Positions 7,713 through 23,207 of a stretch of DNA of 64,000 nt are shown piece after piece. Positions within the stretch are counted from its first letter, which is position 1. Every line of letters begins with the position of its first letter. The DNA lies in assembly GCA_041615815.1 (NCBI GenBank), contig JBFJCP010000001.1, forward strand, positions 128,001 through 192,000, read 5' to 3'. A program made the position numbers and the translations under genes. Source of the DNA: Gemmatimonadales bacterium (GTDB taxonomy: Bacteria; Gemmatimonadota; Gemmatimonadetes; Gemmatimonadales; GWC2-71-9). The notes beneath the pieces are model-generated. The model saw nothing but the letters and a program-made list of their open reading frames with translations, was not told the DNA's origin and made no database searches.

Positions 7713-8261
7713 GTGAGCGCGCCAGAGCCCACGGGAGCACCGCCGGATGCCGTGCTCATTCGAGCGTGGCGGGAGGGCGAGGAGACCGCGGCGGCCGAGC
7801 TCGTACGCAGGCATGCGAGAGCGCTGGCGCGGTATCTGAGCGCGGGTGGGGCGGGGGACGACGTGGACGACTTGGTCCAAGAGACGTTCTTCCGCGCGTT
7901 CCGCCGCATCGAGACCTTTCGGGGGGAGGCGAGCTTTCGCGGATGGTTGCTGGCCATCGGCTCCAACGCCCTGAAGGACTACCGCCGCCGGCTGAAGCGT
8001 CGGCAGGTGCTGCCGTTGGAAGACCGCGAGATCGTGGACGAGGGCAGCGATCCCCACATGCACGCGCGCGAGCGGGACCTGCTGGAGCAACTACAGGCCG
8101 GGGTCGAGCGGTTGCCACCCATGCAGCGCGACGTGTTCTTGATGCGGGCACAGCAGGGGCTGGAGTACGGGGCGATCGCGGAGGCGTTGGAGACGAGCGT
8201 GGGCGCCGCGCGGGTCCATTATCATCACGCGGTCAAACGGTTGAAGCAGATTCTGCAGTGA
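7713..8261 (+). CDS. ECF RNA polymerase sigma factor
   Basis: DLVQETF..AFR, FRGEASFRGWL..I..N and region 4 HTH (LEYGAIAEALETSVGAARVH). Confidence 0.92.
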   Translation: MSAPEPTGAPPDAVLIRAWREGEETAAAELVRRHARALARYLSAGGAGDDVDDLVQETFFRAFRRIETFRGEASFRGWLLAIGSNALKDYRRRLKRRQVLPLEDREIVDEGSDPHMHARERDLLEQLQAGVERLPPMQRDVFLMRAQQGLEYGAIAEALETSVGAARVHYHHAVKRLKQILQ

Positions 8262-8271
8262 GGGTGACGCG

Positions 8272-8676
8272 ATGATCGACGAACGCGATCTCGAGAAGCT
8301 GGCGCCCCGATTGGGCGATCGAGCCGCGGAGCGGATCGACCCAAACCAGGTGGCGAGCGACGTGCTGGCGCGTCTCGCGGCCGAGGCGGAGCCAATCCGC
8401 TGGTGGCGACGCCCCGCACTGCTGCGGATCGCGGCGGCCGTGACGCTCGTGGCCGGAGCGAGTTTCTTCGCCCTGCGCGGTTTTTCGGGCGGTGCGGGTG
8501 TGGTGAACGAGGGTCTCCCGGCTCCCGTGGCCTTGGAGGAGTTGGGCGTGACCGAGCTCGCCGAACTCGTGGATTCGCTCGAGGTCGACGGTCCCGTCTA
8601 CCGGTTGGTGCCCGCGTCTTTGGACGACTTGTCGGAGCAGCAGCTCGAGCTGTTGCTGGAGGAGATGGAGGGATGA
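8272..8676 (+). CDS. putative membrane anti-sigma factor
   Basis: Directly follows the ECF sigma; WWRRP followed by one TM helix and an acidic C-terminus. Confidence 0.65.
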   Translation: MIDERDLEKLAPRLGDRAAERIDPNQVASDVLARLAAEAEPIRWWRRPALLRIAAAVTLVAGASFFALRGFSGGAGVVNEGLPAPVALEELGVTELAELVDSLEVDGPVYRLVPASLDDLSEQQLELLLEEMEG

Positions 8677-9658: not shown

Positions 9659-11125
9659 CTAGGGACCCCAAAAGAACGTGATCGGCCGCGGGTCAGCCAC
9701 GCCCTGGAGCGACAATCCCTCCCCAGGCAGTGCGGTCGGGATACTCCGTGTCGGAACCGTCAGGCCGTTGACACTCGAGTCGACGGATTCGTACTGCCGC
9801 CCGCCGGCGCGCAGGCATCCCATCATGTGCTCCATCACATTCTGAAGGTACTGCTGCTTGAAATCACCCTGCTCGCTGACGGAGATCGAGCGGATACCCC
9901 CTTCCGTCACTTCGGGGCCATCCGTGTATCCCTCGTTCTGATAGTCCGACGGCGGAAGCTTCATGTCCACTACGACACCCCGATCGTTGAAGCAAGTGTC
10001 GTACAGGTACAACCGCCCGTCGTGCTCGAGGAAGTTGATACAATGGCCGCCCCCGTAGTTGAGCTGCTCGACCTGCCGGCCATCCTCCGTCTGGGGAGGC
10101 GCTGACCAGAACCGGTAGCGTTGCTGCTCGACGTCGTGGACGATGGATGTCGGCGTCAGCGGAAGCTCCGTGTCATGAAACTCGGACGCGTCTTCCTCCG
10201 GGACCTTCCGCCCGGTTCCCGGCTTCGCGATCACCACCGCGCACCACATGGCGTCGCCATCGTCTGCGACACGCCACTCGAGGAAAAAGCAGCGGCGATG
10301 GACCGCGACACCTTGGCATCCCGCCATGGCCTGGAACATCTTGTTCCACCCCCCACAGTAGCCGCCCTTTGCGAGAATCATCGCGCCGACGTGCCAAGCC
10401 CGAACCGCGTACTCCATCGAGGTGTTTTTGACGTTCGCAATGATCGCGTCACAGATGTCGACGGGACTGGAGAGTCCGGCGGCCCACTCGCACGTCCATT
10501 CCACGATCGGCAAGTACGTCCACTGCCCAACGGGAGAGGGTGTGTTACCCGGTGGTGCAGGGATGCCAAGCCAACGCCACGTGTCCGTGAGTGGTCCACC
10601 CGTCGTGTATACCGTGTGGGTGGAATCTCCGATGGCATCTGGGCCGCTGTCGCCTAAGGCGGACCACTCCCACCAGAGCTGTGTCTTGCCGATTTCGTTG
10701 GGTAGCGGAGCGTCGAGCGTAAACTCGATGGGCTGGGAGAGTCCTGAGGCATCGAAGGAAAGTGTCACATCCGTGCGCGGCGCCACACCGAGTTTGGATA
10801 CGGGGGGCTGCGCCTGCGGAGAAGGTCTGGCCTGAATGGTGAGCTTGCCACCTCCGCCCCCTTCGCCACGCCGGAATGTCACCTGAATCCGAGGCGTCGT
10901 GTTCTTGACATACGCCGCGGGCTCGGAACGCAGCCCCGCAATCCATTCCGGAGTCTTGCCGAGCAAATGATCGACCGGTGGGCGTTGCCATTTCTTCTGG
11001 TTGACCGTCGTCGCGGCCTTCAAGTCAACCCACGTCATGGGAGCGATCATATCGATCGCCCCAGCGTTGCCGGGAAAGGCGAAATGAATGCTATGCAGCG
11101 CGAGTTGTGGTGTACCAGCCGTCAC
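9659..11125 (-). CDS. hypothetical protein with transglutaminase/papain-like Cys-His-Asp core
   Basis: GGYCGGWNKMFQAMAGCQGV (Cys helix), then GHCINF and LYLYD. Order and spacing resemble the transglutaminase-like superfamily. Confidence 0.6.
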   Translation of the reverse strand: MTAGTPQLALHSIHFAFPGNAGAIDMIAPMTWVDLKAATTVNQKKWQRPPVDHLLGKTPEWIAGLRSEPAAYVKNTTPRIQVTFRRGEGGGGGKLTIQARPSPQAQPPVSKLGVAPRTDVTLSFDASGLSQPIEFTLDAPLPNEIGKTQLWWEWSALGDSGPDAIGDSTHTVYTTGGPLTDTWRWLGIPAPPGNTPSPVGQWTYLPIVEWTCEWAAGLSSPVDICDAIIANVKNTSMEYAVRAWHVGAMILAKGGYCGGWNKMFQAMAGCQGVAVHRRCFFLEWRVADDGDAMWCAVVIAKPGTGRKVPEEDASEFHDTELPLTPTSIVHDVEQQRYRFWSAPPQTEDGRQVEQLNYGGGHCINFLEHDGRLYLYDTCFNDRGVVVDMKLPPSDYQNEGYTDGPEVTEGGIRSISVSEQGDFKQQYLQNVMEHMMGCLRAGGRQYESVDSSVNGLTVPTRSIPTALPGEGLSLQGVADPRPITFFWGP

Positions 11126-11254
11126 GGCAACACCTCACGCTCTCTACTCGATCGGCGTCACGTCCTGGACCCACGCTCGGGCCCGGTGCCCGCGGTCTCC
11201 AAATAACGAGGCCATCACACGTTCGCAAGAGGACGAGATCGAGCATGGCACCCC

Positions 11255-11283
11255 TTGACGGTGCGTTGTTACATCCGTATATG
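11255..11283 (+). promoter_or_regulatory. putative sigma70 promoter of the RiPP operon
   Basis: TTGACG-N17-TATATG, 40 nt upstream of the precursor ATG. Confidence 0.45.
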
Positions 11284-11323
11284 GCATTTGGGAAACGTTT
11301 CTCTTCACTCAGGGGGATCAGTC

Positions 11324-11491
11324 ATGACCCGCTTCACCGGCAAGGACCTGATGGTCACCGTACTGCCCGAAAGGGGCTTCGCCGCGGACTGCGACAAGGC
11401 CTGCACGAATCCGGGTTCCGAACGTGTTCGACCCTTCCGAGCGGCGGATCTGGAGGCTCTTCGGCGCGACCTTCGGCTCAGGCTCCGCTGA
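11324..11491 (+). CDS. putative RiPP (lanthipeptide-like) precursor peptide, 55 aa
   Basis: AGGGGG RBS then ATG. Sequence MTRFTGKDLMVTVLPERGFAADCDKACTNPGSERVRPFRAADLEALRRDLRLRLR. First gene upstream of the lyase-like and kinase-LanC genes. Confidence 0.75.
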   Translation: MTRFTGKDLMVTVLPERGFAADCDKACTNPGSERVRPFRAADLEALRRDLRLRLR

Positions 11492-11509
11492 TCAACCCCA
11501 ACATCTGAT

Positions 11510-12754
11510 GTGGGTATTCGGGGGGTGACGGCGATCACCCCCTGGTGCCATGCGAGAACCCAGCGCGTACATGTGTCTGTAGTTCTTCGCCCCGGGTTAT
11601 TGACCCGCGCGTTTCGCGCACCCGCGCAGTACGATCTCGTCTCCGTGGAACGCCTCCCCGTCGACCAGCGACGCATTCTCGATGATCTCATCAGGGTTGG
11701 GTGTCCTGCCGTCCTGCTTCCCCGTGCCGAGAGTGGACACACGATCAAGATGCTGAGCCCGGAGACCACGGAGCTGGTCCGCGCGTTGAAGGAGCCCGGT
11801 CCGCTCCCACCAGGCGCGGTCGATCGCCTGGGCCGGCGGGCGGACGAGACCATTGCTCGGCTGGTCTTGGATGATATGCTCGAGATCGAGACGCACAGCG
11901 GCTTTGTGAGTGGCGTGGCAGCGAGTGAGGTCGTCCTGCAGATCGAGGACCCCGAGGCACCAGAAGGTCTCCTCAGCGAGCTGTCGTGGTCCGCCCTACA
12001 GTTTGGACAGGCGATGGAACTCGGTGAGCCTCTCGCCCTCGCCCGACGGCTGTACGGATACAACGCCGTTCCAGCGTCACCCCGCTACCGCCATCGTTTT
12101 CCAACGACCCGTGCCGTGGCCGAGTTTCTCGGTCTCGACGGCTTTGGCGCGAGCCTGCAACTCGTGGAGTCCGGTAGCGAACGCACCGTCGATTGGCGAC
12201 ACGGTGGCGCGTGGTGGTCCTGGTTGGCCGGCGACGCGGACGCGGTTCCGACCGGTCGACAGGTCTACAAGCTGTATGTGAGTCCTGAAGTCGAACAGTT
12301 GCGGGACGCGTTCCACACCGTCATCGGCACGATCGGGAAGGACGGCCCCTTCTGTTTCAAGGTCGGGCGGGATCTCCTCGGGATCTTGAGACCGGACAAA
12401 CTCGTGGCGTATTTCGCCCACCAGGAGCAACTCCAGGCGGCGTCCGAGAGGCTCAGCGACGAGCTCGACGGCATGCGCCCCCAGGGCGTCCCTTTCACGG
12501 CCGATGCCGGCGCCAACGGCCTGCTGTCGTGGGCCGTCGACCCTCCGCGCGACGACTGGTCACCGCAGTGGTACCGAGACCGGAGCTGGCGGATGTGGAT
12601 CACCCATCTGCTGGCTGCATCGCTGCATGCGGCACGAATGACCGCGCGGGCCCCGCTCCCGCCGTGGCACTTTGCGCAGGTGCGCGTGGCCCTTGAAGGC
12701 GTCAACCCCCAGACATGGGCCCCCACACCGGGGCCGTGGCATCTTGCGGCGTAG
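11510..12754 (+). CDS. HopA1/OspF-like phospho-Ser/Thr lyase (LanY-like) with putative N-terminal RRE
   Basis: YKLYVSP, CFKVG, RPDKLVAYF and GVPFT..GLLSWAVDPP..SWR motifs. Start uncertain (GTG 11510 or TTG 11600). Confidence 0.65.
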   Translation: MGIRGVTAITPWCHARTQRVHVSVVLRPGLLTRAFRAPAQYDLVSVERLPVDQRRILDDLIRVGCPAVLLPRAESGHTIKMLSPETTELVRALKEPGPLPPGAVDRLGRRADETIARLVLDDMLEIETHSGFVSGVAASEVVLQIEDPEAPEGLLSELSWSALQFGQAMELGEPLALARRLYGYNAVPASPRYRHRFPTTRAVAEFLGLDGFGASLQLVESGSERTVDWRHGGAWWSWLAGDADAVPTGRQVYKLYVSPEVEQLRDAFHTVIGTIGKDGPFCFKVGRDLLGILRPDKLVAYFAHQEQLQAASERLSDELDGMRPQGVPFTADAGANGLLSWAVDPPRDDWSPQWYRDRSWRMWITHLLAASLHAARMTARAPLPPWHFAQVRVALEGVNPQTWAPTPGPWHLAA

Positions 12755-12763
12755 GAAGGTGCC

Positions 12764-15166
12764 GTGCTAGTCGCGGAGCCGTTGATCTTGCCGGAGGACG
12801 TTCTGATCGTTCCCGTGGCGGATCTCGCGCCCGAGGCGCGACGGAAACTTCAGAGCGATCTCGGAAGGTTCGCGGTGACGCGGCCCCGCTCCCGAGCACC
12901 CTCGATGGTCGTCGACGAGGGAGCCGCGGATCTGTTGCAGATGTTTCGCTCGGCAAGTGCGATCAACGACGTCATCCTGCGGTACAGTCGCGCGCGGCAG
13001 CTCGATCCCGAAGAGGTACTCGAGGGCGTGTTCCCGATCCTCAGCGGCTGCATCGCTTCGCAGTTTCTCGTTCCAGCCAATACACCGGAAGCGGACCGAA
13101 TTCTCCCGATCCTGAACTTGGACAGTCACGCCGGCCCCTTCGAGTTGATCCGGTGCGTCCAAGTCTTCGAGGACACCGAGGTGTATCAGGTGAAGACGCG
13201 AGCCGGATCGCTGGCGGCGCTGAAACTGTCTCGATCCAAGGGCGTTGCGACGCGGCGGCTGCTCGAGCGTGAGGCCGCGATTCTGAATCGTCTCGATGGG
13301 ACTACGACACCCGCCGTGGTTGGCGCTGGTGCCGTGCATGACCACCCGTATTTGGCCATAGAATGGCGGAGTGGGGTATCGGCACTCGTTGCGGCCCACG
13401 AATACCGCAACGACCCGCCGAAGTACCGGTCAGACCTCTTGATGCGTCTGTGCCACGGCGTCCTTCGCGCCTACGAACATGTGCACCGGCAGGGCGTCGT
13501 GCATGCCGACGTCCATCCGGGGAACATCATGATCGGACCGGACGGACGCGTCACCCTGCTCGATTTCGGGCTCGCACGAGCGGATGACGGTCCTCCCCAG
13601 TGGCGCACCGCTCCGCGCGGTGGCGTGGCGCCCTTTTACGAGCCTGAATTTGCCAACGCGCGGCTCGCCGGCGGCACGCTTCCGCAGGCCACATTCGTGG
13701 GCGAGCAATACGTGCTCGCGGCGTTGCTCTATCTGCTCCTCACGGGCCACCACTACGTGGATTTCTCGCTGACCGCTGACGAAGCGTTTGCACAGATTGC
13801 CCGGCAGAATCCCTTGCCTTTTTCGGTGCAGGGGGTTCCGCCATGGCCAGACGTGGAGCGGGTGCTGAGCGCGGCCTTGGCCAAGGAGCCGCGCGCACGG
13901 TTTCCCACGGTACAGGCCTTTGCCGCGGCGCTGCGTGGGGCGATGGATGCGGCCGCTCCGATCGCACCCGTCCCCAGTCCAGCTCGGCGAAGCCCCACCG
14001 ACGTGTTACTCGATCGCGTCGCCCGGAAGCTGGACCCGGCAGCCAAGCCGTATGCGCGCGGTCTTCAGGCGCCCCCGCAGGCATCCATCACGTACGGAGC
14101 AAGCGGGTTGGCCATTGCGGCGTACCGCTTGGCATGCATCCGATCGGATCCTCGAGCGCTCGCGGTAGCCGATGCCTGGCACACGCGGGCGGTGAACGAC
14201 ATGCGCTCCAGCCGGGCGTTTTACAACGCAGCCATCGGCGTCACGCGGGAAATCGTTGGCGAGACGTCGCCGTATCATACGGCGAGCGGCGTGCACGCTG
14301 CCGGGGTCTTGATCGGTGTGCTCCGGGGAGATGTGGCCGCAGTCCACGAAAGCGTAAGAGGTTTTGTCAGTGCGTCCGAACCGCTCGCCGCCCGTATCGA
14401 CCTGACGCTGGGGCGCGCGGGCACCTTGCTGGCGTGCAGCCTCTTGCTCGATGCACTGCCGCCCGAGTTCGCGGACGAGCGCACCCTTATGATGCACTTG
14501 GGAGGCCGAACCGCACGGACCATTCGCGAAAGCCTCGCGTCGTATGGGCCCATTCCTGAGTGTGTTCAGCTGCGCAGCCTTGGGATGGCGCATGGGTGGG
14601 CGGGTGTCCTCTTCAGTCTGCTGCGGTGGTATCGGGTATCTTCCGCTGGCCCGCCCCCCGAATTCGAGGCTTGGCTCTCCGAGCTTGCGGCGCAGGGGGA
14701 ATTGGCGGGACGGGGAATGCGTTGGCGCATGCGGACCGAGGGCCCGGATCTGGATCACCGTTCGTATATGAACGGGTGGTGTAATGGATCGGCTGGCCAC
14801 CTCTATCTGTGGACGCTGGCTCACCGCATGTTCGGTGTCGACGAGCACGCGGCGTTGGCCGAGCAAGTGGCGTGGAACGTTTGGGAGGAGCGCGGGTCGA
14901 TACCGACGCTCTGCTGCGGATTGGGAGGACAGGCGTACGCACTCCTCAAGTACTACCAGCATACCGGCGACCGAAGATGGTTGGTGAAGGCGCAGCACTT
15001 AGCGAGCATGGCGGCTGAGGAGTGCTTGAAGGAACAGGCGGTACCGTGGGAACCGTACCGCATGAGCCTGTTCAAAGGCGAGGTCGGAGTCGCCGTGTTG
15101 GCGGCGGATATATCACGCCCCGAAGGGGCGTCGATGCCGTTCTTTGACGAGGAGGGATGGTCCTAG
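12764..15166 (+). CDS. RRE + Ser/Thr kinase + LanC-like cyclase fusion (lanthionine synthetase lacking a lyase domain)
   Basis: Kinase motifs AALK, HADVHPGN and DFG. LanC motifs YGASG, LGRAG, GMAHG, WCNG, LCCG and SLFKG. AGGAAGG RBS. Confidence 0.85.
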   Translation: MLVAEPLILPEDVLIVPVADLAPEARRKLQSDLGRFAVTRPRSRAPSMVVDEGAADLLQMFRSASAINDVILRYSRARQLDPEEVLEGVFPILSGCIASQFLVPANTPEADRILPILNLDSHAGPFELIRCVQVFEDTEVYQVKTRAGSLAALKLSRSKGVATRRLLEREAAILNRLDGTTTPAVVGAGAVHDHPYLAIEWRSGVSALVAAHEYRNDPPKYRSDLLMRLCHGVLRAYEHVHRQGVVHADVHPGNIMIGPDGRVTLLDFGLARADDGPPQWRTAPRGGVAPFYEPEFANARLAGGTLPQATFVGEQYVLAALLYLLLTGHHYVDFSLTADEAFAQIARQNPLPFSVQGVPPWPDVERVLSAALAKEPRARFPTVQAFAAALRGAMDAAAPIAPVPSPARRSPTDVLLDRVARKLDPAAKPYARGLQAPPQASITYGASGLAIAAYRLACIRSDPRALAVADAWHTRAVNDMRSSRAFYNAAIGVTREIVGETSPYHTASGVHAAGVLIGVLRGDVAAVHESVRGFVSASEPLAARIDLTLGRAGTLLACSLLLDALPPEFADERTLMMHLGGRTARTIRESLASYGPIPECVQLRSLGMAHGWAGVLFSLLRWYRVSSAGPPPEFEAWLSELAAQGELAGRGMRWRMRTEGPDLDHRSYMNGWCNGSAGHLYLWTLAHRMFGVDEHAALAEQVAWNVWEERGSIPTLCCGLGGQAYALLKYYQHTGDRRWLVKAQHLASMAAEECLKEQAVPWEPYRMSLFKGEVGVAVLAADISRPEGASMPFFDEEGWS

Positions 15167-15310
15167 CGACCGCACCATGTCCAAGCCCGAGCCGAAATCC
15201 CTCGAATGGATGCCGGAACCCGGGATTGGGTGTGATAGATCCTGCAATTGACTGAACCTATATTGAGCCGCGCTGTCGCTCCTCGCTCGGCAGCGTACTG
15301 AAACCTGCGG

Positions 15311-18280
15311 ATGCTCGAAACACTCCGAACGGCGCTGAAGGGTCGCTACGAAGTCGATCGCGAGCTTGGTCGCGGCGGCATGGCCACGGTCTTTTTGGCC
15401 AAGGACCTGCGGCACGACCGACCGGTGGCCATCAAAGTGCTGCGGAGCGAACTCGCGGCGGCGTTGGGTCCAGAGCGGTTCCAACAAGAAATACGAGTTG
15501 CTGCCGGGTTGTCCCACCCCAATATCCTTGCGCTGTACGACTCGGGGGAGGCCAACGGTCTCCTTTACTACGTGATGCCGTTCGTCGAAGGGGAAAGCCT
15601 CGGCGACCGGTTGGCCCGCGAGACCCAACTGTCGATCGACGAGGCGCTGGCGATCACGCGGCAGGTCGCGCAAGCGCTGCACTACGCGCACGAGCGTGGG
15701 ATCGTTCACCGGGACGTCAAGCCGGACAACATCATGCTGCAGGGCGATCAGGCTCTCGTCGCGGACTTTGGCATTGCCCGAGCCGTCGACTCCCTGTCTC
15801 AGACGCGTCTCACGTCGACCGGCATCGTGATGGGCACGCCCGCGTACATGAGCCCGGAACAAGCAGCCGCGGAGAGCGACCTCGATGCCCGCAGCGACGT
15901 GTACAGTCTGGCCTGTGTGCTGTACGAGATGCTGAGCGGGGAAACACCGTTCCGGGGGACAACCGCACGGGCGATGCTCGCGCGGCATGCAGTGGAGCCG
16001 CCGCCGAGTGTTCGCGTGGTCCGCCCCACAGTCCCGGACGCCGTACAGTTCGCGATCGTCAAAGCGATGGCCAAGCTGCCGGCAGACCGATACGCGACGG
16101 CGTACGAGTTTGCGGAAGCGTTGGCCGGACAGACGGGATCGTATGCCGTCAGCGGTCCCCGCCGTCGCGTCCCGAAGCGTATCGTGGCGAGTGCGGCCGC
16201 GGCGGCGCTGGCCGTCATCGCCATCACCACCGTCTTGATCACGGGTCGCAGCGCCGACGTCCCCCCGTCGGATTCCGACCTGATCGCCGTCATGCCATTC
16301 CAGACAGCGAGCGCGCTCGATCCGTCGCTCGGCGCACTCAGCGAAGGGATGCTCGAGTTGTTCTACACACGACTGGGTGGGGGAGGAGCGCTGCGTGCCG
16401 TTTCTCCCAGCAAAGCGCTCAGCGCGTTCCGTCGAGCCTTGGAGGCAGCGGATGAGGAACCGGAGGAGGCCGGCTTGCGCGCCGCCGCCGAGCTCGGTGC
16501 CGGGCGGCTGCTGACCGGTAACATCTCGAGCATCGGTGGGCGGCTGTTTCTTCGTGCCTCGTTGGTCGCTGTCCCAAGCGGCGAGCACATGATCGACGTG
16601 CAGGCAAACGGTGTCCCTGACAGTCTCCTCGCCCTCGTCGACCAACTTGCTGCGAGACTGCTCGTGCGGAGTGCTGGCGAATCCGATGTTCTGCTCAGTC
16701 AGCTGCTCACGACCGATCTGGGCGCGCTGCAGGATTACCTCGATGGTCAAGCGGCCTATAACCGCGGCGAGTACGTGCGAGCAGTGAGCTCGTATCGCGA
16801 TGCCATGGCCAAGGATTCCACATTCGCGCTGGCGGCGCTCGGCATGGCCGCAGCGGAAGATTTTCTTCCCGTCCTGCAGGCACAGGAAGGGCTGCCGCTC
16901 GCGTGGAGAGCGCGCGAGCGGCTGGGAGCCCGCGACGCCGCCTATCTGACGGCGCTCGCTGGGCCCCGCTACCCGGCGCACTCGTCGTTCGCGGAACAGA
17001 TCACGGCCTGGCAGCAGGCCACCCATCTACTCGCGGACCGGAAAGAACCCTGGTATCAAATGGGCAATCTGCTCCTCGAGTGGGGGGCGGCGGTGGGCCT
17101 GACGGACGCGCAGGAGCGGGCCCAAGAGGCTCTCGAACAGGCGGTGGAGCTCGACTCCGCGTTTACGCCGGCGCTGGGTCATCTGTTGGAGATCGCCGCC
17201 CGCCGCGGCGACACGGCGGCCGTGCGACGCATCGCACCGCGTGTGCTCGCCGGCGGGCACGGGGATCTGGACGACTACTATCGGTGGCGGGTCGCGCTGG
17301 CGCTGGGAGACTCTGCCACCCTCCGTGGCTTGCGCCTTCGGTTCGCCGAACTCGAACCTCGCGCCCTCGATCGCATTCTCGGGGTGGCTCAACTGGATGG
17401 TGTGGGCCTCGAAGATGCGCTGCCGGCGGCCGAGAGTTATCGCGCGCAAAGCCGGCGACCCAATGAAGTCCGCTGGGCTTCTGACAAGCTTCGGTCCTTG
17501 GCCCTGAATCGCGGCAGGCCACGGGAAGCCATGAAGTATGACAGCCTGATCGAGGAGATCCGAGTGCCCGAATGGGACCGCGGCCCGTTCGTCCAAGTGA
17601 TCCACGCCCTGTATTGGGGAGGCGACACCGCGCGGGCGCGGGCGAACGTCGAGCGGCGGGCTCCCATTGCCGACGCGGTTCAGGAACCGCGCGATCCGTT
17701 CGCACGAGAGTACTTCGACATTTGCGCCGTGAACCTCTGGCGCGTGTCACGGGGGGACCTGACCCCGGTCAGGCGGAGCATTCGTCGCTTGGTCGACGCG
17801 ATGACGGTGATGGACACGATGCCGCGGCAGCGCGGAGGACCACGTGGTGACCTCCAGATGGGCCATATCCCGATATGTTCTGCCCTGCTGGATGCCCAAC
17901 TGGCAGCGGCCGAGCGCTCGGATCGCGCGCCTGCAGCGCTCGCCCACCTGGATTCCCTGATGCGCTCCGGGCCCCAGGCCGTGAGTTGGATCACGGTCGC
18001 CGCGCACCTGTCCACCGCCTGGCTGTTCGAAGCACGCGGGGATATCCGGGCCGCACTGGCAGCCGTTCGGCGGCGTTCGTACCAGTTCGATCGGGGGACG
18101 ATCGGCCTCTCGACCTTCCTGCGCGAGGAAGGACGGTTGGCCGCGATGGTCGGCGACACGGCCGCGGCCATCCGCGCGTACGATCACTATCTCAGGTTAC
18201 GGGAGAAGCACGAACCGGCGGTGGCCCACGAGGTCGCGCAGGTGCGACAGGAATTGGCGGGACTGGTCCGCGAGCCCTAG
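15311..18280 (+). CDS. Hanks-type Ser/Thr protein kinase with TM helix and TolB-N/TPR-like extracytoplasmic region
   Basis: LGRGGMATV, AIK, HRDVKPDN, DFGIA and GTPAYMSPEQ; hydrophobic segment near aa 290-310; helical repeats follow. Confidence 0.9.
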   Translation: MLETLRTALKGRYEVDRELGRGGMATVFLAKDLRHDRPVAIKVLRSELAAALGPERFQQEIRVAAGLSHPNILALYDSGEANGLLYYVMPFVEGESLGDRLARETQLSIDEALAITRQVAQALHYAHERGIVHRDVKPDNIMLQGDQALVADFGIARAVDSLSQTRLTSTGIVMGTPAYMSPEQAAAESDLDARSDVYSLACVLYEMLSGETPFRGTTARAMLARHAVEPPPSVRVVRPTVPDAVQFAIVKAMAKLPADRYATAYEFAEALAGQTGSYAVSGPRRRVPKRIVASAAAAALAVIAITTVLITGRSADVPPSDSDLIAVMPFQTASALDPSLGALSEGMLELFYTRLGGGGALRAVSPSKALSAFRRALEAADEEPEEAGLRAAAELGAGRLLTGNISSIGGRLFLRASLVAVPSGEHMIDVQANGVPDSLLALVDQLAARLLVRSAGESDVLLSQLLTTDLGALQDYLDGQAAYNRGEYVRAVSSYRDAMAKDSTFALAALGMAAAEDFLPVLQAQEGLPLAWRARERLGARDAAYLTALAGPRYPAHSSFAEQITAWQQATHLLADRKEPWYQMGNLLLEWGAAVGLTDAQERAQEALEQAVELDSAFTPALGHLLEIAARRGDTAAVRRIAPRVLAGGHGDLDDYYRWRVALALGDSATLRGLRLRFAELEPRALDRILGVAQLDGVGLEDALPAAESYRAQSRRPNEVRWASDKLRSLALNRGRPREAMKYDSLIEEIRVPEWDRGPFVQVIHALYWGGDTARARANVERRAPIADAVQEPRDPFAREYFDICAVNLWRVSRGDLTPVRRSIRRLVDAMTVMDTMPRQRGGPRGDLQMGHIPICSALLDAQLAAAERSDRAPAALAHLDSLMRSGPQAVSWITVAAHLSTAWLFEARGDIRAALAAVRRRSYQFDRGTIGLSTFLREEGRLAAMVGDTAAAIRAYDHYLRLREKHEPAVAHEVAQVRQELAGLVREP

Positions 18281-21701: not shown

Positions 21702-23207
21702 GTGTCTATGACTTGGGCAAGGGTTGGAACGGAGTCGGTGGATCGTGGCAGGCTGGGGTGGAAGATCGCGACGCTGGCGGGCGTCGCGTGGATCGCCACG
21801 GCCTGTGTGGATGGGGCTTTGGCCCCCGATCCGGTGGTCGTCGCGCCGCCGGCATTTTCGGTGCTCGCCGCCGAGGGTGGTCAACTCCGCGATCACCTCG
21901 TGGTGCTGCGACGGGAAGGCGCACCGTCCCGGGGGCTCATTCGGCGGATCGAAGCGATGGGCGGGACGGTGGCACAGCGCCACGACGAGATCGGCGTGCT
22001 CGCCGTGAGCGGTCTCAATGACCTGGATGCGTCCGGCCTCGGTGAGTTCGCGGAGGTGGACGGCGTTGGGCGCGATCTCGATCTCCAATGGATTCCGCCG
22101 CTGGAGGAGCTCCAGCTGGTCCAGATGGATGCGGGGGCGGAGACCGATCAGAGCGACGCGTTCTTCTTCGATGCGTTCCAGTGGAACATGCGTCAGATCC
22201 AGGCCGACGACGCGTGGCTCGTGACCCCGCAGGGAGCGGGGGCGCTCGTGTGCGTCATGGACTCGGGACTCGACCCGAGCCACCAGGACCTGGCCGGCAA
22301 AGTCAACATGGCCGTGAGTAGATCGTTCTTCCCGGGCGAGCCTGATATCCTCGACCGGAACTTCCACGGCACGTTCGTGAGCGGGATCGTGAGCACCAAC
22401 GGCCTCGGTGTCGCCTCCGTCGCTCCGGATGCCGATCTCTGCATGATCAAGATCGCCGGCGCTCAAGGCTCGGCCCCGTTTGCGAGCATCATTAACGGAT
22501 TCATCTGGGCGGGACTGATCGGTGCCGATGCCGTGAACATCAGCTTCGGCCTGCTGATTCCCGTCGAGCTCCTGAAGGACCCCATCGTGGTGGCTATGCA
22601 GCGCGCCGTCAGCTTCGCGCAGAAGAAGGGCGTCCTCGTGGTGGCATCGGCAGGGAACGAAGGCGTGAAAATCGACTTCGGCTCGCCCTACGCGCACATC
22701 CCGTCACAGCTCGGTGGGGTGATTGGCGTCGGGGCCACCGCGCCAGTCAATCAACAGGACTTCGATCGCCTAGCGTCGTACACGAACTACGGCAGGGCGG
22801 GGGCGCAAGTCATGGCTCCCGGCGGCGACTTCGTTCCCGGAAGCGTCATCGCGGACCTCATCATGTCGCTCTGCAGCAGCGTAGCCTTTCCGGCTCCGTT
22901 TCCCAACGGTTGCGGCGGCGGAGCGGTGTACGTGTTCGCCGCGGGAACCAGTTTCGCGGCGCCGCACGTGACGGGGACCTCAGCGGTCGTCGAATCCGCC
23001 GCGAAGTTGGAGCAGGGGAGTTCTTACCTTCGGCAATGCATTTTCCAGGGAGCGGACAAGCTCGACGGCCGCATCCTGAGCCCGGTCTACGGTTACGGCC
23101 GTCTCAACGTGCTCGGATCGGTGGCCCCCGGTCCGTGTGGTGGCGTCGCTCCTCCACCAGACGATGGCGGAGACGAGCAGATCGTCGAGGAAGGAGCTAC
23201 GGACTAG
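21702..23207 (+). CDS. S8 subtilisin-like serine peptidase, probable lipoprotein
   Basis: Catalytic triad VMDSG / HGTFVSG / GTSFAAPHV; SAGN oxyanion motif; lipobox ATAC. Start GTG 21702 or ATG 21708. Confidence 0.9.
   Translation: MSMTWARVGTESVDRGRLGWKIATLAGVAWIATACVDGALAPDPVVVAPPAFSVLAAEGGQLRDHLVVLRREGAPSRGLIRRIEAMGGTVAQRHDEIGVLAVSGLNDLDASGLGEFAEVDGVGRDLDLQWIPPLEELQLVQMDAGAETDQSDAFFFDAFQWNMRQIQADDAWLVTPQGAGALVCVMDSGLDPSHQDLAGKVNMAVSRSFFPGEPDILDRNFHGTFVSGIVSTNGLGVASVAPDADLCMIKIAGAQGSAPFASIINGFIWAGLIGADAVNISFGLLIPVELLKDPIVVAMQRAVSFAQKKGVLVVASAGNEGVKIDFGSPYAHIPSQLGGVIGVGATAPVNQQDFDRLASYTNYGRAGAQVMAPGGDFVPGSVIADLIMSLCSSVAFPAPFPNGCGGGAVYVFAAGTSFAAPHVTGTSAVVESAAKLEQGSSYLRQCIFQGADKLDGRILSPVYGYGRLNVLGSVAPGPCGGVAPPPDDGGDEQIVEEGATD

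Follow-up and report, generated by a model that had tools for sequence, protein, structure and literature searches.

Enzyme architecture is the basis on which lanthipeptide synthetases are divided into classes, and with every new class have come new kinds of ring chemistry and new means of engineering peptides. The subject of this work is a cassette of three genes in a 64,000-nucleotide (nt) stretch from an uncultured soil member of the Gemmatimonadales (GenBank assembly GCA_041615815.1, contig JBFJCP010000001.1, positions 128,001 to 192,000 of the forward strand; hereafter the window), which had been picked out by an earlier reading of the letters, the original prediction, as a candidate lanthipeptide system. 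We consider it likely that this cassette specifies a ribosomally made and post-translationally modified peptide (RiPP) of the lanthipeptide type, made by a synthetase that is split over two proteins and whose chemistry we infer. Several described systems come close to it. In class IV (LanL; NCBIfam NF038150; VenL, SgbL, and CuvL, PDB 8car/8cav), a Ser/Thr kinase is fused to a LanC-type cyclase with zinc ligands, and the lyase is part of the same polypeptide. Class V (LanK/LanY; LxmKY, PDB 9dk1-3; CaoK/CaoY) has a separate HopA1-type lyase, an APH-type kinase that stands alone, and a cyclase that is not LanC-like. Class III (LanKC; NF038151; ThurKC, PDB 8sam; SalKC; PneKC) follows the logic of kinase, lyase and cyclase within a single polypeptide, and class II (LanM) is likewise a single polypeptide, with a dehydratase unrelated to the kinase and lyase route of the cassette. 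Class VI, attributed to He and colleagues (Biochemistry, 2023), is said to have a truncated lyase domain. Class III cyclases lack the zinc ligands (PMC8341899); class III enzymes bind a helical leader without a RiPP recognition element (RRE), and no RRE is identifiable in the enzymes of classes II-V, according to the 2023 paper on the ThurKC structure (PMC10604976); the class VI LanKCt/LanKCb of streptococci are shortened LanKC-type enzymes, according to a review (PMC12328550); and the introduction of a 2026 paper lists only lanthipeptide classes I-V (PMC13504147).

The cassette occupies window positions 11324-15166 on the plus strand, and its three genes are intact and co-directional, encoding a peptide of 55 amino acids (aa), a protein of 414 aa and a protein of 800 aa. 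The corresponding plus-strand open reading frames (ORFs) lie at 11255-11491 (where the internal ATG at 11324 gives the 55-aa product), 11510-12754 and 12764-15166, so that the co-directional unit of the original prediction was found where it had been placed. The intergenic gaps are 18 nt between the peptide and lyase genes and 9 nt between the lyase and kinase-LanC genes, and the three genes therefore most likely form one transcript. The features of the cassette are as follows.

11324-11491, plus strand: precursor peptide gene, 55 aa and stop (gene-like base composition by codon position; a relative at locus L005; top match of the leader motif in the genome)
11324-11368, plus strand: conserved N-terminal leader motif, aa 1-15, MTRFTGKDLMVTVLP (F4 and L9 invariant and V13 nearly so in precursor alignment A4)
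11369-11443, plus strand: variable core, aa 16-40, with C23, C27, T28 and S32 (hypervariable and rich in Cys, Ser and Thr across relatives)
11444-11488, plus strand: conserved C-terminal amphipathic helix ('follower'), aa 41-55 (L50 invariant and L43 nearly so in A4; L..L..QL...L recurs in relatives)
11510-12754, plus strand: predicted stand-alone phospho-Ser/Thr lyase gene, 414 aa (fold, motifs and conservation; a later GTG, at 11525 or 11573, may be where translation truly begins)
11594-11899, plus strand: N-terminal winged-helix domain of the lyase, aa 29-130, tentatively RRE-like (weak structural matches and hhalign)
11945-12742, plus strand: lyase core of the HopA1/LanY type, aa 146-411 (invariant K254, Y256, K284, R294, D296 and K297; structural matches over model residues 146-407)
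12764-15166, plus strand: RRE-kinase-LanC fusion gene, 800 aa (Pfam, NCBIfam and family alignment)
12764-13078, plus strand: RRE (PqqD-like) domain, aa 1-105 (domain model; best structural matches RRE/PqqD, Z 9.8 to 7.7)
13136-14023, plus strand: Ser/Thr protein kinase domain, about aa 125-420 (invariant K154, H247, D249, N254 and D267; Pfam Pkinase and NCBIfam kinase models)
14093-15145, plus strand: LanC-type cyclase domain, aa 444-794 (invariant H610, W672-C673 and C717-C718-G, the CCG motif; Pfam LANC_like E 2e-24)

Neither Pfam, NCBIfam nor PADLOC returned a family match for the 414-aa protein, and a profile of its family alignment retrieved only a chance GGDEF match (E 0.086) from the PDB sequences. 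When the 43 members of the family alignment were compared with Pfam at E<=10, only faint links emerged, namely RamC_N in 3/43 (best E 0.0034) and HopA1 in 2/43 (best E 0.02). The AlphaFold model, in turn, had a pLDDT of 87.7 and a pTM of 0.87, and the eight Foldseek matches that it gave at E<=0.001 were all LxmY, HopA1 or the class IV synthetase CuvL, with E values of 6.4e-7 for LxmY and 3.2e-6 for HopA1. Alignment by VIA-align ranked HopA1 highest (Z 15.7, 226 residues aligned), closely followed by LxmY (Z 15.6, 230 residues), and then by CuvL (Z 13.5, 164 residues), ThurKC (Z 12.5, 155 residues), SalKC (Z 11.6, 156 residues) and SpvC (Z 8.8, 130 residues). The HopA1/OspF-like fold that had been proposed for this reading frame is thus present in the model, and the motifs on which attention had been drawn at the outset (YKLYVSP, FKVG, RPDKLVAYF, GVPFT and WAVDPP) are all found in the translation. 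The six lyase residues listed above are invariant in all 43 sequences, Y301 is kept in at least 90% of them, and all seven fall within these motifs. Furthermore, the spacing K284-10-R294-7-Y301 is the same as that of K219-10-R229-7-Y236 in CaoY, in which K219 is the essential base, the K219A substitution abolished elimination and R229Q impaired it (PMC9486802). The Lys base and the phosphate-binding Arg of the 414-aa protein are putatively assigned from invariance and from this CaoY-like spacing, and by the same mapping K254 would occupy the position where OspF and LanL have Lys and CaoY has Arg (PMC9486802). Overall, the model supports the view that the 414-aa protein is a stand-alone lyase of the HopA1/LanY type, with predicted eliminase activity.

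Ahead of its catalytic core, the lyase carries a separate winged-helix domain (aa 29-130), which matched the RRE-bearing regions of MibB (Z 5.5), TigE (Z 5.4) and TbtB (Z 4.9) weakly, and which hhalign aligned with the RRE of the 800-aa protein over 66 columns (E 4.4e-4, probability 34%). It is plausible that this is a second docking domain.

In the 800-aa protein, Pfam recognized a Pkinase domain (residues 139-297, E 1.8e-13) and a LANC_like domain (residues 444-794, E 2e-24), which confirms the kinase-LanC fusion. The best NCBIfam match was the class IV LanL model NF038150 (E 1.5e-43), at 149 bits against a cut-off of 650 bits, and only positions 230-812 of the 851 in this profile were covered; since the match begins at position 230, the lyase domain is absent from the protein. 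The LanKC model NF038151 scored 103 bits against its cut-off of 575 bits, and the APH model matched over a 35-residue stretch only. Both the kinase residues listed above and the LanC residues H610, W672-C673 and C717-C718-G719 are invariant across 41 aligned full-length homologues. The canonical zinc motif of LanC is CHG; the third zinc-ligand position of this cyclase is Cys (CCG) and not His. The CCG motif is shared with the ProcM type of class II, and in ProcM/SyncM-type enzymes it has been tied to relaxed substrate specificity (PMC12328550), which, by analogy, would fit the hypervariable cores described below. PADLOC matches of the protein (PD-T4-6 and mad6) were discarded as a signal of defence, as they are generic kinase matches and uninformative in this regard.

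The original prediction had held the first ~105 residues of the kinase-LanC protein to be too short for a lyase, and had proposed that elimination was outsourced to the neighbouring gene; both points are supported, the second by the position of the lyase gene, which stands immediately ahead of the kinase-LanC gene in 80/80 related loci. Folded with the family alignment, residues 1-125 gave a model of pLDDT 82.9 with the order strand-strand-strand-helix-helix-helix, and in an all-against-all structural search with the N-terminal domain RRE/PqqD domains ranked first, namely TigE (Z 9.8), PqqD (9.4), TbiB1 with its leader (9.1), lasso B1 (8.8), MccB (8.6), MibB (7.9) and the RRE of PbtF (7.7). 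Pfam PqqD had no match in the protein at E<=0.01. The model nonetheless supports an RRE fold, and not a lyase, at residues 1-105, with the E-E-E-H-H-H order of the PqqD superfamily. A prediction of the complex between the RRE and the precursor lends weak support to docking: it scored 0.38 against 0.00 for the best control, the runs agreed in at least 37% of contacts, and the pLDDT of the partner was at least 45. The mark that it passed is reached by 116/157 solved complexes and 2/215 mismatches, although at scores of 0.60 or lower, as here, it is reached by only 18/157 solved complexes and by both of the passing mismatches. Moreover, the pass may reflect likeness, because RRE-leader complexes have already been solved.

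The small ORF is the candidate substrate gene. Its guanine plus cytosine (GC) fractions at the three codon positions (0.69/0.53/0.76) match those of the lyase gene (0.72/0.50/0.76), unlike those of the upstream spacer (0.64/0.56/0.56), and it therefore has the GC pattern of a real gene. In related loci, the ORFs upstream of the lyase follow a three-part plan: they open with an N-terminal motif (type M-x-F-x-x-K/R-D-L-M-x-x-V-L-P), pass into a hypervariable middle in which Cys, Ser and Thr abound and repeats are frequent, and close with a C-terminal amphipathic stretch (type L-x-x-L-x-x-Q-L-x-x-x-L), which at many loci is lengthened into a long charged helix. A hidden Markov model (HMM) of the 12-residue leader motif, run against the 15,890 six-frame segments of the locus set, gave 36 matches at E<0.01, all of them on the lyase strand, upstream of the lyase gene, and in 36 different loci. 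At a loose cut-off (E<10, with candidates limited to ORFs whose end lies no more than 450 nt upstream of the lyase), such an ORF was present in 59 of 81 units (80 loci and the window), absent in 21 and without upstream sequence in one. The window ORF was the top match among the 72,280 segments of its own genome, and its product shares 50% identity with the peptide encoded upstream at the Gemmatimonadota locus L005. By its shared N- and C-terminal motifs, therefore, the sequence supports the assignment of the small ORF to the cassette.

The window peptide is a minimal member of this family, being the smallest substrate seen among the units compared. Its predicted length of 55 aa stood, whereas its earlier description as a Cys/Thr/Ser peptide was overstated, since it has two Cys, four Thr and one Ser. 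Relative to the 425 Cys of 40 cores, Ser/Thr occurs more often than expected at +1 (190 observed, 86 expected) and at +4 (210 observed, 82 expected), counts that are inflated by repeats; the window core fits this spacing only in part, with C27-T28 at +1, and C23 to T28 and C27 to S32 at +5. No ring topology is deduced from these spacings. As separate observations, the precursors at L022, L041, L044, L001, L003 and L028 are 220-255 aa long with 18-33 Cys, far above the usual size of RiPP substrates, and the precursor of another Gemmatimonadota relative (L070, 4807-5127) has five tandem copies of a nine-residue Cys/Ser/Thr unit.

A scan of one genome per species yielded 394 lyase relatives, of which the best 80 were used as the locus set. 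In every one of the 80 loci, the next gene after the lyase, on the same strand, is a kinase-LanC homologue; this homologue forms a single uninterrupted full-length frame in 55 of them, and in the rest is cut by contig ends or lies in several pieces. With this pair in 80/80 loci and a similar small ORF upstream in the majority of units at the loose cut-off, the expectation of a conserved three-gene neighbourhood across genomes was upheld. A word-based search with the lyase gave 338 matches, called hypothetical wherever a source names them, and an exhaustive profile search gave 1,603 cluster representatives (50% identity) at E<=0.001, 1,462 at E<=1e-10 and 1,161 at E<=1e-30; lengths run from 358 to 474 aa in the best 150 representatives listed. 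No fused form of the lyase appeared among the proteins of 726-2070 aa searched with it, which is weak evidence. By the taxon names in the record titles, the loci belong to about ten phyla, including Acidobacteriota (in many forms), Gemmatimonadota, Eremiobacterota/WPS-2, Chloroflexota, Actinomycetota, Nitrospirota, Planctomycetota, Alpha- and Betaproteobacteria, two Bacillus isolates and two bins of Nitrososphaerales archaea. In the latter two (L061 and L063), the lyase and kinase-LanC pair comes after an ORF that has the leader motif and a long stretch of prolines, and a binning error is possible.

Placed beside the described classes, the cassette fits none of classes I-VI; it has a kinase-cyclase half like that of class IV and a free lyase like that of class V, and is a member of neither. 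It shares with LanL the Ser/Thr kinase with its catalytic residues and the LanC-like cyclase with its zinc residues, both presumably dehydrate by phosphorylation and elimination, and both are without a dedicated protease gene; however, the N-terminal lyase of LanL is replaced by an RRE, the lyase is a separate protein, and the precursor, unlike those of LanL, is conserved at both ends. It shares with class V the stand-alone HopA1-type lyase, as judged by fold and with Pfam HopA1 unmatched (LxmY Z 15.6), together with the Lys/Arg/Tyr spacing of CaoY, whereas the kinase is of the Pkinase type and fused to LanC in place of a stand-alone APH-type kinase and a non-LanC cyclase, the first catalytic position, as mapped by spacing, is Lys (K254), as in OspF/LanL, where CaoY has Arg (PMC9486802), the N-terminus of the lyase bears an additional domain of ~130 aa, and there is no decarboxylase gene. 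The class III lyase domains are structurally related to the present one (Z 12.5 for ThurKC and 11.6 for SalKC), but the zinc ligands that LanKC cyclases lack (PMC8341899) are here present and invariant, and two proteins with an RRE take the place of a single polypeptide that binds a helical leader without one (PMC10604976). In contrast to the shortened lyase that class VI is said to have, the cassette has an RRE fold at the N-terminus and a full, separate lyase next door. The judgement of the original prediction that none of classes I-V fits cleanly thus agrees with each of these comparisons. A published description of a free lyase with an RRE-kinase-LanC fusion was not found in the literature searched, outside which most subscription journals lie.

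From these folds, the order of the domains, the conservation of catalytic and zinc-ligand residues, the arrangement of the genes and the family of precursors, the following pathway may be proposed. The precursor would dock on the RRE of the 800-aa protein through its N-terminal motif (aa 1-15), laid down as a strand, a mode suggested by the RRE fold, and may also dock on the related domain at the N-terminus of the lyase. The kinase domain would then phosphorylate Ser/Thr of the core, T28 and S32 being the candidates, and the free-standing lyase would take off the phosphates by beta-elimination to leave dehydrobutyrine (Dhb) and dehydroalanine (Dha). Finally, the zinc-type LanC domain would add the thiols of C23 and C27, giving up to two thioether rings. 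Enzymes of classes III and IV bind amphipathic leader helices with hydrophobic repeats, and do so without an RRE (PMC12328550, PMC8341899); the C-terminal helix of the precursor, alike in kind, might, as a matter of speculation, serve a groove of the lyase or kinase. No LanD, LanT or LanP gene adjoins the cassette, as had been noted at the outset. Because class III and IV clusters mostly have no peptidase gene and borrow general peptidases (PMC8341899), a cassette without a protease gene is normal in this respect.

Several observations weigh against the assignment of the cassette to a split lanthipeptide synthetase. First of all, the lyase matches neither Pfam HopA1 nor RamC_N, each of which had no match at E<=10 over the whole genome, and the mapping of its catalytic residues (K254, K284, R294 and Y301) derives from invariance and motif spacing, not from superposition. 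Support for a second RRE, on the lyase, is likewise weak, at Z of about 5 and an hhalign probability of 34%. On the substrate side, the window peptide has few Cys and only five Ser/Thr, and its score with the leader motif is modest (E 0.056 in the locus set, 0.25 genome-wide); 21 of the 81 units have no motif match, although many of these 21 have Cys-rich upstream ORFs with variant N-termini. Lastly, clustering of the flanking ORFs of the 80 loci and the window, over flanks that extend ~3.5 kb beyond the kinase-LanC gene, gave no family of proteases, transporters or immunity proteins common to more than 6 loci.

This last result bears on what the product is. The peptide might be a small protein that is cross-linked but kept whole, thioether-stapled with its leader and C-terminal helix retained, and with a cellular or surface role. 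We regard this as unlikely, but as the most serious of the alternatives, since neither a protease nor an exporter is conserved next to the unit, many of the relatives' substrates are 150-255 aa long with long, charged, coiled-coil-like C-terminal tails, and conservation of both ends is unusual for a leader that is to be discarded. On the other hand, class III and IV clusters are likewise mostly without a peptidase gene (PMC8341899), the substrate of the window is only 55 aa long, and a subtilase gene lies 6.5 kb away. Alternatively, the kinase-LanC protein and the lyase may act on other cellular proteins as a signalling or repair module, in which an irreversible dephosphorylation of the OspF type is combined with a thiol addition of the LanCL type, and the small ORF is an adaptor, a regulator or a non-substrate. 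A Ser/Thr kinase of 989 aa adjoining the locus, the extra kinase genes near several relatives, and the Cys-poor peptide of the window are in keeping with this idea; however, the extra kinases are not conserved across the locus set, a hypervariable core rich in Cys, Ser and Thr and flanked by conserved ends is what marks a RiPP substrate, the enzyme carries a fused RRE fold, and the small ORF holds its position in most loci across phyla, all of which render it improbable. The notion of an ordinary class IV cluster that merely looks split through a frameshift or assembly error, which could appeal to LanL as the family that the 800-aa protein matches best (E 1.5e-43) and to the call of class IV that, as we infer, antiSMASH-type rules would probably make at such loci, is refuted and left with next to no probability by the same two-gene split in 80/80 loci, a distinct lyase family of ~390 aa with 1,462 representatives at E<=1e-10, an RRE and not a lyase remnant at the N-terminus of the kinase-LanC protein, a score of 149 bits that is far under the 650-bit cut-off and, as weak evidence, the lack of a longer fused form in the search described above. 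For comparison, a peatland survey counted 73 'class IV' clusters (PMC13642348).

The split lanthipeptide synthetase may also be seen in a wider frame, which we put forward tentatively and with more doubt than conviction: a further, undescribed class of lanthionine synthetase, composed of two proteins each with its own peptide-docking domain, acting on leader-core-follower substrates that range from a 55-aa peptide to proteins of at least 240 aa, spread over roughly ten bacterial phyla and bins of ammonia-oxidising archaea, and with products that may be whole thioether-stapled small proteins and not cleaved antibiotics.

The source genome is a bin of 4.19 Mb in 73 contigs, 95.7% complete, with a single copy of the lyase and a single copy of the kinase-LanC gene; the loci most closely related to the cassette are in Gemmatimonadota bins. 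Two short elements precede the coding region.

11255-11283, plus strand: weak promoter-like hexamers, TTGACG-17 nt-TATATG (read by eye, without statistical support)
11312-11317, plus strand: Shine-Dalgarno-like GGGGGA, 6 nt before the ATG of the precursor (from the sequence)

The promoter-like element of the original prediction is thus legible to the eye, but a consensus scan of 10900-15500 found no site of the sigma-70 type, against 0.8 +/- 0.9 in shuffled sequences, and it is therefore statistically unsupported. No RNA holder is listed for 11200-15200. Beyond the cassette, the 989-aa Ser/Thr protein kinase (15311-18280, plus strand; Pkinase E 6.4e-50), which has a long C-terminal region, begins 145 nt after it; extra kinase genes also occur near several Thermoanaerobaculia relatives, and such a neighbour is not conserved across the locus set. 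The LanP leader peptidases are subtilases. A Peptidase_S8 subtilase of 501 aa (21702-23207, plus strand; E 9.8e-35) is 6.5 kb downstream with other genes in between, and the flanks of the related loci stop short of the equivalent position. On the other side, a 488-aa ORF (9659-11125, minus strand) is divergent from the cassette, has no Pfam, NCBIfam or PADLOC match and was not found beside related loci. Farther upstream (7713-8676, plus strand), a sigma factor of the extracytoplasmic function (ECF) type, with Sigma70_r2 and r4_2, is directly followed by a 134-aa ORF without a family match, and the two look like a sigma/anti-sigma pair.

Overall, these results support a putative, widespread further architectural class of lanthionine synthetase, not found in print, of which the window holds an intact copy with an unusually simple substrate. 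The cassette joins a free lyase of the class V type with a kinase-cyclase of the class IV type, and adds an RRE, a feature said in the ThurKC study to be absent from classes II-V (PMC10604976). It is also abundant, as the lyase has 1,462 representatives at 50% identity and E<=1e-10 and relatives in 394 species-level genomes, mostly of uncultured soil phyla, and automated mining probably files such loci as class IV. With its 55 residues and two Cys, the substrate of the window, the smallest seen, makes this copy a simple first candidate for reconstitution. By analogy, the invariant CCG zinc motif together with the hypervariable cores suggests a substrate-tolerant cyclase; such tolerance is what made ProcM of use in peptide libraries, and the synthetase of this family may likewise become an engineering tool.

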